Positions 3,167 to 33,017 of a DNA stretch of 64,000 nt are shown here, piece by piece. This stretch comes from an uncultured delta proteobacterium (lineage in GTDB: Bacteria > Desulfobacterota > RBG-13-43-22), in NCBI GenBank assembly GCA_963843145.1, contig CAWJJC010000010.1:64001-128000 (forward strand), given 5' to 3'. The notes below the pieces were generated by a model. That model was not told where the DNA came from and did not search any database. It saw only the letters and a program-made list of their open reading frames with translations. Each line of letters begins with the position of its first letter. Positions within the stretch are counted from its first letter, which is position 1. The translations under genes and the position numbers were made by a program.

Positions 3167-3266
3167 GTCATGCCGGACCTGATCCGGTATCCAGGTTACC
3201 CGGGACCTTCCCGACCTTTGGCAATCCGGATCTCGTCACACCTCCGCAGTCCTCATCCGGAATGAC
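3167..3266. repeat. GTCAT...ATGAC palindromic intergenic element (copy A)
   Basis: gtcatgccggacctgatccggtatccag ... ccggaatgac; related to the copy at 46140-46226. Confidence 0.7.
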
Positions 3267-3353
3267 AACTCTTTGCCGGGCTAATCCTTTTCTTCATGCT
3301 TCGCGGGTACTCCCGTCCTTCCCACCTTCTGACCGCCTCACTATCCTTTTCAC

Positions 3354-27746: not shown

Positions 27747-28640
27747 TTACCTCAGAATAAGCGGTAGATAAATATTCTTTCTAATTGGGGCAAAGGCCAA
27801 ATCGTAGCTGATGTTATTCTGGGCTATCAGTGTCGCGATCCCTGTGCTTTTATCCAACACATAAAAACCACCAGTGCTGCCGAAAGCAGCATAGAGAGTA
27901 CCATCGCTAGGATCAATCGCCAACCCGCCAAAACCACCTATTGTTACCCCGGGGTTTCCTATGGAGGTATAGGAGCCAGTGGCAGGACTCACTGTGCCCA
28001 GAGAGTTGCCAATAGCATCAAGCGCATAGAATTTTTGACCATCAAAAGCCAGCCCATTCAGGTCGCGGTTTTCACCTGGGACTGGTCCCAGTACCGTGGC
28101 GATACCTGTGGTGGGGTTGATCGTGAACATCGCAGCGTTACCAGCATTCCCTTGATTTACTCCGAACAATTGCCCTGACGCATCAAATGCTAGTCCGCCT
28201 TCGAAAACGAAGAATCCTAATGGCCCAACTGCAGTGGCAACCCCATTGGTTGTATTGATCGTGTACAACCTTGCGCCCGAACCGATACTAGTGCCGTATA
28301 GAGTCCCGTTACCGTGGAAGGCTAAAGCTCCTATTGCGATCTCAACTGGTCCGTGGGGACCAATCAGGGCGGCGCTTCCGGTGGTTTTGTCGATCATAAA
28401 TAAATTCAGACCATCTGTAGCATACAAACCTCCTGAGACCGGAGTTTGTAACACTGCGGCAGGAGCAGATGTGAAATCTTTATGAAGTCCATCTTCGCTA
28501 TTGGTGGAATAGCCGAGCACACCGGTCAAAGGCGATATAACTCGTGGCACCACTTTCATTGCCGGAGCAGCCGCTGCCCAAGTTTCCAAAAAACCCAACC
28601 CGATGGTCAACACGAATGCGATAATAAGTCGAAATTTCAT
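27747..28640 (-). CDS. Secreted beta-propeller-like repeat protein with C-terminal YLPLILR tail
   Basis: Signal peptide; repeats GLAFD..G.LY / IDxxTGxAT; ends NIYLPLILR. Confidence 0.75.
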   Translation of the reverse strand: MKFRLIIAFVLTIGLGFLETWAAAAPAMKVVPRVISPLTGVLGYSTNSEDGLHKDFTSAPAAVLQTPVSGGLYATDGLNLFMIDKTTGSAALIGPHGPVEIAIGALAFHGNGTLYGTSIGSGARLYTINTTNGVATAVGPLGFFVFEGGLAFDASGQLFGVNQGNAGNAAMFTINPTTGIATVLGPVPGENRDLNGLAFDGQKFYALDAIGNSLGTVSPATGSYTSIGNPGVTIGGFGGLAIDPSDGTLYAAFGSTGGFYVLDKSTGIATLIAQNNISYDLAFAPIRKNIYLPLILR

Positions 28641-29112
28641 TCTATTTCTCCTTTAGGTTGTTTGCAAATGTTTTATGCCTAATATGTCATTAAAAAGTAC
28701 TGTGATCTCCATTACAAAGATATGATCTTAAGTTTACCGTAAGCGTTTGATCCCGCCTCACCTCATCAAACCACAACCCCCACCTCTTGGTTGAGAAATG
28801 GGGTTTCCTAAATTCCTCCATTTTCTTGCCCTCTTTTAGGGTTGAGTGGCGTTGCTGGAAAACGGGTTATCTTACTGTTTTGGGTCTTAAATGAATCCCA
28901 TTATATACAATTTTTGAAATAGTAAATAGGAGGTTCTTCATCGGGCAGGTACCCTTAATTTGGGCAGGTCCTTCAACAATTTCCGTTTGAAATCTTCTCA
29001 AAAGGGCAATCCGTCAAAAACAATTCAGGAAGCTATACGTACTAAAATCTGATTTTCTTATTGAAGTTAATGGGTTAGGTGTTGTTTAAAATCTCATAGT
29101 TTTGTTTTTTCG

Positions 29113-30006
29113 TCAAGGATTATTTGGGTGGCCAGCCGTTTGTTGCCTGATCACCTCCATGGCTTTGAAGTAGTCTCTCTGCACCTTAAGGTTTGATATC
29201 CGGCAGTACCGTTGTGTGGTTTTCACATGGCTATGACCCAAGAGATCTTGAATGGTGGAGAGATCGGCATCGGCATTGAGCAGCTGGGTGGCCATGGTAT
29301 GCCGAAGATGATGACAGGACACCTTGAGCTTGGCCTGGCGGGCATAAGTTTCCATGCGCCGCTGAATGCCGCGGATGGAGATGGGCTGCCCCTGGCAAGG
29401 CTTCTTTTCCGCCAGGAAGATCTTTCTGGATCTGGATGGAGGCCTCACCCTCAAATAGGCGGCCAGGGCCTGAAGGGCATCATGGCTCATATAGACGACC
29501 CGATCTTTTCCGCCCTTACCGTCTTCAACCAGGATAGTCCTGCGTTTGACGTCTATGACCCCGATCGTTAGCTGGGCGACTTCTTCCACCCGTAACCCGC
29601 AACGGAGCATGAGCATGAACATGGCCCGGTCACGGACGCCCTTGATGGCCTTGAAGAAGGTCTCCACCTGATCATCTCTCAGGTGCCGGGGAAGGGGCTG
29701 GGACATCTTCTGGAGATGAGTCTTCTTGATGGGATTGGTGATAATCACCCCTTCCTCATCCCGCAGGTAATGGTAGAACTGGCGAATACCGTTCAAGTGG
29801 CAGTTGACCGTCTTGGGCGCCAGCCTCTTCCTCATGAGATGCTCGATGTAGCGTGACACGGTTGCGTGGGTCACGGCCTCCACCGGCACATCCAGCCAGA
29901 GGATAAAGTGTTTAATGAGGTTCAGATAGTTCTTCACGGCATGGGGCGAACAGTTCCGCCGCTTTAAAAATCTCTGCCAGTTCAGGATCGCATCGGTCAT
30001 CGCCAT
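29113..30006 (-). CDS. Tyrosine recombinase (XerC/D-like), second gene
   Basis: GLRVEE, GKGGKDR, HHLRH, LGH, QRY: complete R-K-H-R-H-Y set. Confidence 0.92.
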   Translation of the reverse strand: MAMTDAILNWQRFLKRRNCSPHAVKNYLNLIKHFILWLDVPVEAVTHATVSRYIEHLMRKRLAPKTVNCHLNGIRQFYHYLRDEEGVIITNPIKKTHLQKMSQPLPRHLRDDQVETFFKAIKGVRDRAMFMLMLRCGLRVEEVAQLTIGVIDVKRRTILVEDGKGGKDRVVYMSHDALQALAAYLRVRPPSRSRKIFLAEKKPCQGQPISIRGIQRRMETYARQAKLKVSCHHLRHTMATQLLNADADLSTIQDLLGHSHVKTTQRYCRISNLKVQRDYFKAMEVIRQQTAGHPNNP

Positions 30007-31051
30007 TACTGTCCCTCCTCTCTATTTTCGACATGGCTCTAAAATACTCTTCCTCGCGGGTCTTATCGGTCAACTGGGCATAACGCCGGGTCTCCTCGAT
30101 ACTCCGGTGACCCAGCAAAACCTGGAGACACTCCAGACGCATACCGGCGTTGAGAAACTCCGTGGCAAAGGTGTGGCGAAGGGTATGCAGGGAATATCCC
30201 TTGTCCGCCAATCCCGCCTTCGCCAGATATCGTATAAAGATGGTCCGGGCGGTGCTGTAGGACATCGTCTCTGTCCGGGTATAGATCAGGTACTCCTCAC
30301 CGGGATTCCTCTTCTTCAACCACCTCCGCAGAGCCAGGGCCGCATCGTCACTGAGATAGACCACCCTCCCCAGGCGGTTCTTCTCCCCTTCGTAAATCTC
30401 TATCCTCCGCTCCTTGAGATGGACGTCGGCCATCTTGGTATTAAGCAGTTCACCGATCCGCAGACCCGTCCTCAACAAGACCAGGATCATGGCCCGGTCA
30501 CGAATATCTTCAATGACCGAAAGCAGCTTCCGCAGATCGTCAGGATCCATGGCCCGCGGCAGCCGCTCCGGTAATTGCAACCGTATCCTTCTGCTGAATA
30601 GTTCCGCAGAAACGATCCCTTCTTCTAACAGGTAACGGAGAAAGGCTTGCACACTCACCAGCCTGGTCCTGATCGTTGTAATCTTAATCCCCCGGTCCTG
30701 CTCCTGCTCAATGAACGCCTCCACATCCCTTCGGGTAATGGCTTCCAGGGATGCCCTGCCGCTCTCCCGTATCAGGCCAAGAAAAAGAATGATCGCCCCA
30801 AAACGACTGTATAAGGTCCTCGGTCTGCGGTTGCGAAGAGTCAGGTGACGAAGATAGGCTTCCACCTGATCCTTCCCCGGAAGGTCCATCCGGACCAGCC
30901 GTTTCAAAATCTTGCCAAGCGCTTCTAAACAGCCTTCAGGATGTATTTTAAATCGTAATCGCGTTTGATAATAACGGGGAGCGTTATCGGCGGGAATCTT
31001 AAAATCAGAAGATATACTCGTCTGCTGTAGATCACTATGTCCGTTCGTCAT
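29912..31051 (-). CDS. Tyrosine recombinase (XerC/D-like) with N-terminal extension, first gene
   Basis: GLRIGEL, GEKNRLGR, HTLRH, LGH, RRY: complete catalytic set; GGAGG RBS. Confidence 0.92.
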   Translation of the reverse strand: MTNGHSDLQQTSISSDFKIPADNAPRYYQTRLRFKIHPEGCLEALGKILKRLVRMDLPGKDQVEAYLRHLTLRNRRPRTLYSRFGAIILFLGLIRESGRASLEAITRRDVEAFIEQEQDRGIKITTIRTRLVSVQAFLRYLLEEGIVSAELFSRRIRLQLPERLPRAMDPDDLRKLLSVIEDIRDRAMILVLLRTGLRIGELLNTKMADVHLKERRIEIYEGEKNRLGRVVYLSDDAALALRRWLKKRNPGEEYLIYTRTETMSYSTARTIFIRYLAKAGLADKGYSLHTLRHTFATEFLNAGMRLECLQVLLGHRSIEETRRYAQLTDKTREEEYFRAMSKIERRDSNGDDRCDPELAEIFKAAELFAPCREELSEPH

Positions 31052-31213
31052 CTCTGCCTCCTTTTCTTAAATCAATAAGAAAATCAGACAGATGATGACT
31101 AATAAACACTTATCTGTCAAACATCAGCTTGGTACGTATAGCAGGAAGAAAGGCACAAAGCGCTCATCCTGGTTACCGGACCAGGCATGCCCATCCGGTA
31201 ACCAGCATGGAAT

Positions 31214-33017
31214 TTATTCAAACAGGTCCGCTTTCATCTCCACCGTCAACCCATCCCCTTCCATCAGCCGCCGGGCCAATCCCTCGATTTTGGGTAGCTC
31301 GTAATGGAAGAAATAGGCAAACGTCTGGATACTTCCCCTGGTAAAAATTATTTTCTTCTTCGGACAATTCCTTTTCCAGGGCCTTCCGGATGACCAGGGC
31401 CTGGACCAGCCACTGCCAGGCCACGGCAATGATGCCGAAGAATTCCAGGTAGAGGGTGGCGTCGGCCAGGAAGTATTCGGGGCCTTTCTCCTGGGAAATT
31501 TGGACCAGGCGGGCCGTGACCTCCTTCAATTTTCCCAGGGCCTCCTGCAGGCGCACGGCGTAAGGGGCCAGTGAGGAGACCTCCCGGGCCTGGGTGATGG
31601 TTTGCTCCACCTCCCGGAGATAAAGCTGGGCCGCCTTCCCGCCCTTCATGACCATTTTTCTTCCCAGCAGATCCAGGCCGTGGATCCCGGTGGTCCCTTC
31701 GTGGATGGGGTGGATGCGGGCGTCGCGGTAGAACAGTTCCAGGGGGAATTCGTCGCAGTAGCCGTACCCGCCCAGGATCTGCAGGCCTTGACTGACCGAA
31801 AGGAGGCCCATTTCCGAGGGATAGGTCTTGGCGACCGGTGTGAGCAGATCCAGCAGCAGTTCGTTCCGCTCTTTATCTTCCCCGGTGAGAACCCGGGCCC
31901 GGTCCGCATAGAGGCTGCATTGCAGCAGCAGGGAAAAAGACCCCTCGACTACGGCTCGCTGGAAAAGGAGCATGCGCTTTACGTCCGCGTGTTCGATGAT
32001 GTTGACCTGAGGCAGCGTGGGGTCCTTGGCCGCCAGCCGGCGACCCTGGGGCCGTTCCCGGGCGTATTGCAGCGAGGCATAGTAGGCCGCCGAGGCGATG
32101 GCCGTAGCGCTCATCCCCACGTCGATCCGGGCTTCGTTCATCATCTGGAACATGTAGGCCAGGCCTTTGTGGGGTTCGCCTACCAGGTAGCCGCGGCAGT
32201 CATTGTTCTCCCCCAGGCTCAACTGGCAGATGGGCGATCCCCGGTAGCCCAGCTTATGGAAGCTGCCGGCCACCTGGATGTCGTTGCGCGCCAAAGAGCC
32301 GTCTGCTTCGGGGCGAAACTTAGGCACCACGAACAGGGAGATCCCCTTGACCCCCGGCGGGGCCCCCTTGATCCGGGCCAGCAACAGGTTGACGATATTG
32401 TCCACCCCGTCATGGTCGCTGGCCGAAATGAAGATTTTCTGGCCCCGCAGCAGATAATAGTCCTGATCGGTGGGTTCGGCCAGGGTGCTGAGGTCGGACA
32501 GGGAGCTGCCGGCCTGGGGTTCGGTCAGGGCCATGGTGCCCTGCCACTCGCCGGCGTACATCCGGGGAATGTAGGTTTCCTTAAGCGTCTGGGAACCGAA
32601 GGACTCGATCAGATGGGCCGCCCCGGCGGTCAACAGGGGGTAGACGCTGGCCGAGTAATTGGCGGCCGAAAGAATAAAACGGACCACGGCCCCGATCAAG
32701 AGGGGCAGTTGCTGGCCGCCGTATTCGTAGGGGGCCAGTGCGGAGATCCAGCCGCCCTCCCCGCAGGTCCGCATCCACTCCCGGACCATGGGATGGACTT
32801 TGACCTCCCCGTCGATGAATCGGGGGGGATTTTGATCCATCTCCCGGAGCAGCGGCTGCAGGATGTCCCGTCCCAGTTTGAGGGCCGTATCCAGGACCAG
32901 ATCGAAGATTTCCCGGCCGTGTTCGGCGTAGGTATCATATTGGGTCAAGGCTTCGGCATCGAAGACCTCGTAGAGCATGAACTTTACATTTCGTTCGCTG
33001 ATGAATTTCTCGGCCAC
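31214..33017 (-). CDS. Acyl-CoA dehydrogenase (long type), frameshift near 3' end
   Basis: GTMALTEPQAGS, KIFIS, MFQMMNEARI, GGYGY, IHEGTTGIH. Confidence 0.92.

Follow-up and report, generated by a model that had tools for sequence, protein, structure and literature searches.

A 2.1-kb element of two tyrosine recombinase genes flanked by a lineage-specific 7-bp core in an uncultured delta proteobacterium

The window analyzed here is a 64,000-nucleotide stretch of contig CAWJJC010000010.1 (positions 64,001 to 128,000 of the forward strand) from the assembly GCA_963843145.1 of an uncultured delta proteobacterium, and all coordinates below refer to it. It contains a compact element at positions 29033 to 31141, about 2.1 kb in length, which holds two overlapping genes that we refer to as recA and recB. 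recA (29912 to 31051, minus strand) encodes a Xer-like tyrosine recombinase of 379 amino acids with a variable N-terminal segment of about 40 residues, and recB (29113 to 30006, minus strand), assigned from its open reading frame and domain matches, encodes a second Xer-like tyrosine recombinase of 297 amino acids. The genes overlap by 95 nt, such that the sequence for the C-terminal tail of RecA runs over the start of recB, and each is preceded by a strong ribosome-binding site. Both proteins match the Phage_integrase domain and a SAM-like N-terminal domain, are 29% identical to each other, and have the catalytic R, K, HxxR, H, and Y residues all in place when aligned with solved structures of XerD and the XerA type. 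These residues are retained in 71 to 72 of 72 distinct RecA sequences and in 63 to 64 of 64 distinct RecB sequences, from which it follows that both enzymes are under selection to cut DNA; RecA and RecB may act as a heteromeric enzyme. We found no third open reading frame conserved across the 49 unique elements described below, in which antisense reading frames had no conserved position, and neither domain matches nor reading-frame conservation revealed a DDE or HUH protein in the element. An initial sequence-only reading of the stretch had listed nothing but two co-oriented, overlapping tyrosine recombinase genes with a full catalytic set, and the domain and structure alignments agree with it.

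The curated models that best matched RecA and RecB were XerC, XerA, and XerD, and every score was below the cut-off. RecB scored 204.6 against XerC (NCBIfam equivalog cut-off, 335) and 176.5 against XerD (cut-off, 330), while the corresponding scores for RecA were 143.4 and 130.1. A XerD gene (377 bits, above the cut-off) and a XerC-like gene (317 bits) are located elsewhere in the genome, and the recA-recB pair is therefore not the dimer-resolution system of its host; the scores below the equivalog cut-offs and the presence of three end-bounded copies likewise exclude a XerC/XerD role. An integron integrase was ruled out as well, the TIGR02249 model giving 110 and 72 bits relative to a cut-off of 265, with no cassette array present.

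The element proper is bounded by 13-bp inverted ends that pair at 12 of 13 positions. The left terminal inverted repeat (IRL; CTATACGTACTAA, 29033 to 29045, plus strand) is kept in all 49 unique elements, and the right one (IRR; TTGGTACGTATAG, 31129 to 31141, plus strand) was read directly and is conserved in the alignment of family ends. Immediately outside them lie two copies of the 7-mer CAGGAAG, on the recB side at 29026 to 29032 (plus strand) and on the recA side at 31142 to 31148 (plus strand). The ends and flanking 7-mers were as the sequence-only reading had described them, and a repeat search independently listed the terminal inverted repeat (14 nt, 93%). The same search revealed a further inverted repeat, subterminal and perfect over 17 nt, which had previously been missed, consisting of a left box (TCTGATTTTCTTATTGA, 29048 to 29064, plus strand), which from its sequence is a candidate accessory recombinase-binding site, and an inverted copy (31072 to 31088, minus strand) just 5′ of the recA ribosome-binding site. 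When up to one mismatch was allowed, the 13-mer CTATACGTACYAA occurred twice in the window, both times as an element end, and 0.00 occurrences were expected from 100 shuffles. The 9-mer CTATACGTA or its complement was found six times in the 5.35-Mb genome, and five of these sites are element ends.

Across the family alignment, both ends open with CTATACGTA(A/C), and a subterminal motif, CTGnTTTTCnTATTGA, is conserved. At the left end this motif follows the arm after 3 to 4 nt, and at the right end some 45 nt separate the terminal arm from its inverted copy. The 45-nt stretch forms a conserved imperfect palindrome (GATGnTTGAC ... GTCATCATC) that doubles as a promoter-like sequence, TTGACA-17-CATCAT (31092 to 31120, minus strand), a conserved block with 10 of 12 consensus matches that is present at the right end only. 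The two ends are thus related but nonequivalent, giving the element a polarity. The similarity of the inner hexamers of the ends to loxP, which had been pointed out earlier, is a 6-nt string match and carries no weight.

The source genome (G000; 32 contigs) carries three copies of the element with about 95% nucleotide identity, namely, the one in this window (contig C10), one on C28, and one on C13 that is truncated by the contig end within the left inverted repeat. Four related genomes contain full-length copies and others contain fragments; in total, 14 of the 41 genomes searched gave a match, the source genome included. A scan of one genome per species yielded 186 stretches that encode a RecA relative, and the 77 loci that we kept belong to Syntrophales/Smithellaceae, Nitrospirota/Thermodesulfovibrionales, Desulfobacterales, and a few other bins. 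In 72 of these loci a recB-like match (at least 52% identity) adjoins recA; the remaining five are broken, interrupted, or truncated at the end of a contig. Both junctions could be read for 54 of 91 RecA matches, corresponding to 49 unique insertions, and the elements so delimited are 2042 to 2479 bp long and without cargo. Copy number reaches six or more per genome. Several other genomes contain copies that are 99 to 100% identical and whose shared homology ends at the 7-mer or within about 10 nt of it on both sides, the exception being one genome with up to about 60 nt of similarity beyond the 7-mer on the recB side, within the target module described below. The architecture was conserved in every relative examined, as were the inverted ends, bearing out the suggestion that this is a discrete mobile element of insertion sequence size. 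We conclude that the element is real, mobile, and widespread.

In a collection of proteins, 6341 of 8000 scored candidates reached an E value of ≤1e-30, a total that probably takes in ordinary Xer proteins. The best 120 matches are all at least 70% identical and are named either “integrase/recombinase XerD” or “tyrosine-type recombinase/integrase,” and many of these homologues are carried by contigs of about 2.0 to 2.3 kb, the size of the element. A tblastn search of sequenced plasmids found no close RecA relative, the best match being 34% identical. The family is large, is found in anaerobic sediment bacteria, and appears to be undescribed. Two observations concern incomplete copies. In a related genome, two stretches (G001 C13:109316-110133 and 113699-115008; loci L019 and L009) represent one copy of the element interrupted by an insertion of about 3.5 kb; the two parts of this copy overlap by 5 nt (query positions 814 to 818), like the target duplication of another insertion sequence. 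In three further genomes (G015, G016, and G017), fragments with only the left end (query position 1 to about 126 to 252) lie at nine places, compared with four fragments with only the right end; some of these may be contig-end cuts in fragmented assemblies and others solo ends.

CAGGAAG was found at all five readable junctions of the three copies in the source genome and in all 20 unique insertions of its lineage, down to about 64% RecA identity, with CAGGAAA on the recA side of one relative (L048) as the single deviation. By itself, CAGGAAG is frequent (28 occurrences in the window, compared with 10.9 expected, and 1723 in the genome), and the 7-mer therefore gains weight only through its recurrence at the junctions of other copies. 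The 49 unique insertions comprise 13 different core 7-mers, each constant within its lineage. At the left junctions, the other cores are CACCTAC (7 insertions), GTAGGTG (5), TGGCAAG (3), CACCCTG (3), GTATTTG (2), ATAGCAG (2), AGAGCAG (2), and five more that were seen once each. GTAGGTG and CACCTAC are mutual reverse complements, meaning that one word is used in both orientations relative to the element. Flanks in other phyla had only a weak TT-core-AA preference.

These data bear on the possibility that the element is an ordinary transposon that chooses its targets loosely, with the 7-bp repeat as its target-site duplication. Inverted ends and a short flanking direct repeat do resemble an insertion sequence, and the reconstructed target flanks are, as had been stated before, without arms like the element ends. 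However, the same repeat word accompanies every copy of a lineage, 10 of the 49 repeats are imperfect in a way that is impossible by fill-in duplication, a DDE or HUH protein is absent, and insertion is limited to about 1.5% of the CAGGAAG sites of the genome. We regard such a transposon as highly improbable. The sequence-only reading had allowed for a repeat that varies from copy to copy, as a target-site duplication would; the 7-mer differs only between lineages and is thus a homology-dependent core.

The flanking repeat was perfect in 39 of the 49 unique insertions, and the remaining 10 had one to three mismatches. None of these mismatches fell at position 1 or 2, the bases that adjoin IRR at the right junction, and it is the recA-side copy that can deviate, at positions 3 to 7. 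For eight of the mismatched insertions (L048, L087, L088, L096, L103, L107, L109, and L115), a related copy shows the lineage core, allowing the mismatch to be polarized. In all eight, it is the recB side that carries the lineage core and the recA side that carries the deviant 7-mer, and the reverse arrangement was not observed. Over 2077 bp, two of the elements (L112 and L115) are 100% identical, but their recA-side 7-mers differ, indicating that the deviation stems from the target sequence and did not arise by mutation afterward. The pattern of a fixed core with side-specific mismatches fits an element-borne, homology-guided crossover core with ordered, mismatch-tolerant strand exchange.

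Tyrosine recombinases cut two strands 6 to 8 bp apart and exchange one strand pair at a time. We propose that the element ends recombine across their 7-bp cores to form a circle, the joint of which would read IRR-core-IRL, with palindromic arms around a 7-bp overlap, and that the circle would then integrate site specifically at a chromosomal 7-mer matching the element-borne core. The first strand exchange would take place at the core edge adjoining IRR, with identity required at positions 1 and 2, presumably because the invading strand must pair there for ligation. Identity at all seven positions would be preferred, and mismatches at positions 3 to 7 would be tolerated. At a mismatched target, the recB side would receive the element core and the recA side would show the target 7-mer, as expected if one strand exchange were followed by replication. 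The recombinant strand produced by top-strand exchange and replication would run flank, element core, IRL ... IRR, target 7-mer, flank, which is the order that we observed. A lineage would keep its word because the reverse exchange would return the recB-side core to the circle and restore the target; in this way the core would travel with the element, and each lineage would retain its own target word. The circle and the order of strand exchange are what we infer from the junctions. There are precedents for both features. For IntDOT, identity is needed only at the site of first cleavage and the overlap decides orientation (PMC2817482), and in SE elements the spacer of the circle and that of the target end on fixed sides (PMC10214605). 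Two modes are possible for the element described here, namely, ordinary two-step exchange at perfect sites (39 of 49) or a process of copying out that is always strand biased.

Taken together, we put the probability at roughly 70% that the segment from 29033 to 31141 and one 7-bp core make up a mobile element of about 2.1 kb that is autonomous, carries no cargo, is run by the RecA-RecB pair, and integrates by homology guidance. The description that suits it best is that of a minimal insertion element that has two tyrosine recombinases, is site specific, and brings its own 7-bp core. A larger element that includes the module on its left was rejected because near-identical copies stop at the core and most modules occur without the element.

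Several observations weigh against this interpretation. For the CAGGAAG lineage, no IRR-core-IRL joint was found in the source genome or in any fetched locus, nor did we find such a joint in three multicopy genomes (G041 to G043). A clean orthologous empty site was likewise not found when we searched with the flanks of all three copies and of copies in G018, G019, and G041. The one head-to-tail joint comes from a distant relative described in the next paragraph, whose contig was read over only 1554 of 2246 bases and which could be a tandem pair instead of a circle. Two of the mismatched insertions (L064 and L104) have no sibling copy and are hence not polarizable, and in a further locus (L081) the left 7-mer, TACCTAC, departs from the lineage core at position 1, the right junction there being unread. 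In two pairs of close genomes (G018/G019 and G000/G002), synteny runs through the recB-side flank and the element and stops exactly at the recA-side junction, a break that may reflect recombination between copies, core exchange driven by the recombinases, or a metagenome misjoin at a repeat. Finally, all data derive from metagenome-assembled genomes.

When metagenome contigs were scanned for the pattern arm-N7-arm, 24 stretches were recovered, most of which are unrelated palindromes. One contig of 2246 bp (L136) contains recB, recA (51% and 44% identical to those of the window), IRR, ACAGGAA, and an IRL-type sequence in this order and thus represents a head-to-tail joint, which could stem from a circle or from a tandem pair. 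Four other stretches (L123, L126, L130, and L131) are junctions whose target flank opens with an arm-like 9- to 11-mer. The scan also returned solo arm-7 bp-arm sites with the cores CACCTGC and GTAGGTG, one of them a single sequence on two contigs (L124 and L119) and the other on L139. No recombinase gene was found within up to 1.5 kb on either side of these sites, and the right side of L124 continues as genuine left-end sequence; they may be remnants or nonautonomous derivatives. In one related genome (G002), the right flank of the window occurs without the element (94% identity over 1852 nt), preceded by ...CAAAAACAACATTTCTGGAAG, and the DNA further to the left is unrelated. We rejected this locus as a clean empty site, as its left flank is not orthologous. 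In a search of sequencing runs, the matching Logan contigs contained only about one-fourth of the words sampled. The contig pieces from four runs were short and showed neither back-joints nor a jump from 29033 to 31141, a result that speaks neither for nor against a circle or an empty site; in one run (X10), two contig pieces stop at 29026 and 31148.

The absence of an empty site is also what would be expected from obligate strand-biased copy-out/copy-in as in SE elements, and perhaps in Tn554, in which one strand is exchanged, no empty donor site is left, and copy number rises. Like the present element, SE-6283 and SE-6945 are target specific, encode a pair of tyrosine recombinases and neither a DDE nor an HUH protein, and end in short inverted repeats that are imperfect (PMC10214605). 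Their spacer is 6 bp, compared with 7 bp here, and in both systems the element- and target-derived copies lie on fixed sides. The side-specific fate of the two 7-mers resembles the “footprint/fingerprint” rule of SE elements (PMC10214605), and several near-identical copies per genome are common, as copy-out would predict. Against this, the tfp and srap genes required by SE elements are absent, and no third open reading frame is conserved. Moreover, the spacer of an SE circle comes from the previous target and is renewed with each move (PMC10214605), whereas the core here is constant per lineage. The asymmetry is confined to the 10 mismatched insertions, and ordinary two-step recombination would explain the other 39. 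Empty sites missing across species-level genomes are, in addition, weak evidence. We therefore consider obligate copy-out unlikely, though it is the alternative that we would take most seriously.

SE elements differ further from the present element in their four core genes (intA, tfp, intB, and srap), one of which encodes a large recombinase, in their cargo and median size of 15.7 kb with one or two copies, and in being reported only from Gammaproteobacteria (PMC10214605). The element in this study has two genes, 2.1 kb, no cargo, and six or more copies, and it is found in Syntrophales, Nitrospirota, and Desulfobacterales. Membership in the SE family was thus rejected, since the element has two genes only; the fixed-side placement of the spacer, seen in eight of the eight polarizable cases among the 10 mismatched insertions, is a likeness in working and not one of membership.

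Tn554 is similar in that it has two tyrosine recombinases that are both needed, is site specific, and has a junction sequence of about 6 bp without a conventional target duplication (PMC10214605 and PMC3414803). It differs in its third gene, tnpC, in having one much larger recombinase, in its resistance cargo, and in its use of mainly one chromosomal site. By this description we rejected the Tn554 family, which needs tnpA, a large tnpB, and tnpC, whereas the proteins here are 379 and 297 amino acids long and no third gene is present. RIT elements resemble the element in being compact, in containing no genes but those for simple tyrosine recombinases, which overlap or adjoin each other, and in having several copies and terminal inverted repeats; they differ in having three recombinases, including a RitA with two core-binding domains and a RitC with an extra C-terminal helix, and a length of about 3.5 kb (PMC3414803 and PMC8138268). 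The passages on RIT in PMC3414803 describe no direct or inverted repeats that would make convincing binding sites. In contrast, each of the two recombinases described here has a single core-binding domain, and RIT membership was rejected given that all 49 unique elements have two recombinase reading frames between their ends. BIM membership was also rejected, because BIM elements encode one tyrosine recombinase plus a conserved nonrecombinase protein and belong to Betaproteobacteria (PMC3414803), and here both proteins are recombinases.

CTnDOT, with its integrase IntDOT, and Tn916-type elements are alike in having a 7-bp overlap that must be identical only near the first cleavage, may be mismatched elsewhere, and dictates orientation (PMC2817482). 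These large conjugative elements use one integrase with an arm-binding domain together with Xis and host factors and have changing coupling sequences, whereas the present element encodes two Xer-like enzymes without an Xis and keeps its core stable. XerC/XerD-dif and Cre-loxP share with it simple two-domain recombinases and, if the predicted joint is correct, palindromic arms around a 6- to 8-bp spacer; they differ from the linked, multicopy genes described here, which score below the Xer cut-offs and are bounded by inverted ends. Functionally, the closest systems are SE elements and Tn554 (two recombinases, short spacer on a fixed side) and IntDOT (mismatch tolerance), and the element is a member of none of them. 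Full-text literature searches, with ISfinder, TnCentral, and paper supplements outside their scope, found no description of a two-tyrosine-recombinase element of this kind, and the section on simple tyrosine recombinases in a survey of these enzymes (PMC8138268) recognizes fourteen “simple” subgroups, none of which is defined by such a two-gene element. As had been suggested earlier, none of the named families that we compared fits the element.

In this bacterial family, the element is targeted to a conserved, multicopy intergenic module that resembles a promoter and leader. In the window, the module occupies positions 28740 to 29025 (minus strand) and reads toward a gene at 27747 to 28640 (minus strand), with the CAGGAAG core as its upstream edge. 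This gene lies outside the element and encodes a protein of 297 amino acids with a signal-peptide-like N terminus and matches to Pfam DUF4394 and DUF6923. The module, about 290 to 300 bp long and ending in TTCAGGAAG, recurs throughout the genome, as determined with nhmmer. A profile of the module without the core gave 32 genome hits (E value of ≤1.5), 24 of which are followed by an exact CAGGAAG, and one weaker hit brings this number to 25, equal to about 1.5% of the 1723 CAGGAAG sites in the genome. In the close lineage (RecA identity of at least 80%), all nine left flanks score as the module. This result, along with the constancy of the 7-mer within lineages, contradicts the view in the sequence-only reading that integration is transposon-like rather than specific to an attachment site. 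Non-element DNA follows 13 of the 25 exact-core modules, the junction often reading ...CAGGAAG-AAGCCC..ATATTGATATTTC, and these modules look like unoccupied paralogous sites; at least one apparently unoccupied module (on C8) has a broken recombinase remnant nearby.

Read toward the gene, the module consensus consists of the core, the blocks TTGTTTTTGA and AGATTTCAAACGnAAATCGTTGA, a promoter-like pair (TTTACT...TGTATAAT), and a terminator-like hairpin with a T run about 130 nt beyond this pair. The leader of about 130 nt carries an invariant ATGGAG, and the start codon is 220 to 420 nt from the core. The genes behind ten modules encode proteins with Lcl_C (2), Chlam_PMP/beta-helix (4), DUF4394 (1), nucleotide cyclase (2), and MaoC (1) matches and are mostly surface or secreted proteins. 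The element genes are codirectional with the gene of the module, and the element sits at the far upstream edge, leaving the promoter-like part intact; because CAGGAAG is used in this bacterial family only as the upstream edge of the module, insertion takes place about 150 nt upstream of the −10 box and does not disrupt the module. An Rfam search of window positions 28500 to 31400, the module included, gave no match at an E value of ≤1, and no tRNA was found in this interval, by which a known RNA gene was ruled out as the target. Related genomes also contain the module in abundance, three of them with 24, 18, and 13 matches, and it may be an undescribed promoter-plus-leader or small-RNA family of these bacteria. 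At element flanks in other phyla, we found no match to this module. A second type of module with the core GTAGGTG is present in the source genome, and GTAGGTG-type elements in two related genomes adjoin module-like flanks.

The association with this module raises the question of a host-domesticated switch of the FimB/FimE kind that inverts, deletes, or swaps the module to control a downstream surface protein gene. The order of two co-oriented recombinase genes, a promoter-like segment of about 300 bp, and a gene for a secreted protein recalls fimB-fimE-fimS-fimA. The products of module-associated genes, mostly surface or secreted, would suit such a role, as would the multicopy nature of the module and the existence of a second, single-recombinase unit at the CAGGAAG core. 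However, the orientation of the module to its gene was uniform at the 10 sites with a listed adjacent gene, the consensus shows no inverted core at the far end of the module, and a recombinase pair with inverted ends is present at only 2 to 3 of at least 25 modules. In other phyla the pair occurs at sites without the module, and copies are bounded by the inverted ends and the core and not by the module. The tyrosine-type DNA invertase models gave only 53 and 46 bits relative to cut-offs of 221 to 222; with these scores, the single orientation at 10 sites, and the lack of a far-end inverted core, membership among FimB/FimE-type DNA invertases was rejected. We consider a domesticated switch very unlikely.

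Compact, cargo-less, multicopy elements are normally based on DDE, DEDD, HUH, or serine recombinase enzymes. The mobile element described here, with its recombinase pair and homology-guided core, would add a widespread, compact two-tyrosine-recombinase type that appears to be absent from mobile-DNA catalogues. Its homologues are labeled “XerD” or “tyrosine-type recombinase” in public data, and contigs of about 2.0 to 2.3 kb, the size of the element, are what is expected of a repeat that breaks assemblies. More tentatively, and at somewhat less than even odds, these could be the first “insertion sequences” of prokaryotes to be driven by nothing but a pair of tyrosine recombinases; such elements would find their target mainly through base pairing with a carried 7-bp word, could be retargeted by a change of that word, and would complete insertion at imperfect sites by a single ordered exchange and replication. 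The natural lineages with 13 different cores suggest such retargeting. The lineage cores and the 10 mismatched insertions amount to a natural experiment on the roles of overlap homology and strand exchange order in determining target and orientation, and a two-protein system of about 2 kb with an element-borne target word could serve as a recombination tool if the core is swappable. The targeting of the upstream edge of a multicopy promoter-like module would make this a case in which a mobile element is matched to a family of regulatory sequences of its host.

Several further observations concern the module and its surroundings. About 25 additional module copies are present in the source genome (for example, C2:122296-122636 and C27:118501-118765), and others lie at loci L149 to L177. 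A unit of about 1.1 to 1.2 kb, containing one tyrosine recombinase gene whose 279-amino-acid product is 26% identical to RecB, occurs in three copies in the source genome (C2:126200-127400, C20:538900-540114, and C2:117600-118768), one of which is decayed. This unit abuts the CAGGAAG core, its start reading CTATTCTTCGGATAG, and on its far side are CACCTAC and an inverted GTAGGTG-type module. At the C28 copy of the element, only the promoter-proximal 130 nt or so of the module are present, and a truncated beta-carbonic-anhydrase-like reading frame of 124 amino acids (L002, 1077 to 1451) runs into this module. In the recA-side flank of a copy in G019 (L040, about 3200 to 3330), a short repeat of about 130 nt lies at a distance of 70 to 200 nt from the junction. 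This repeat is matched 34 times in the 3.0-Mb genome G018 and may be the rightward half of an unoccupied intergenic unit or a MITE.

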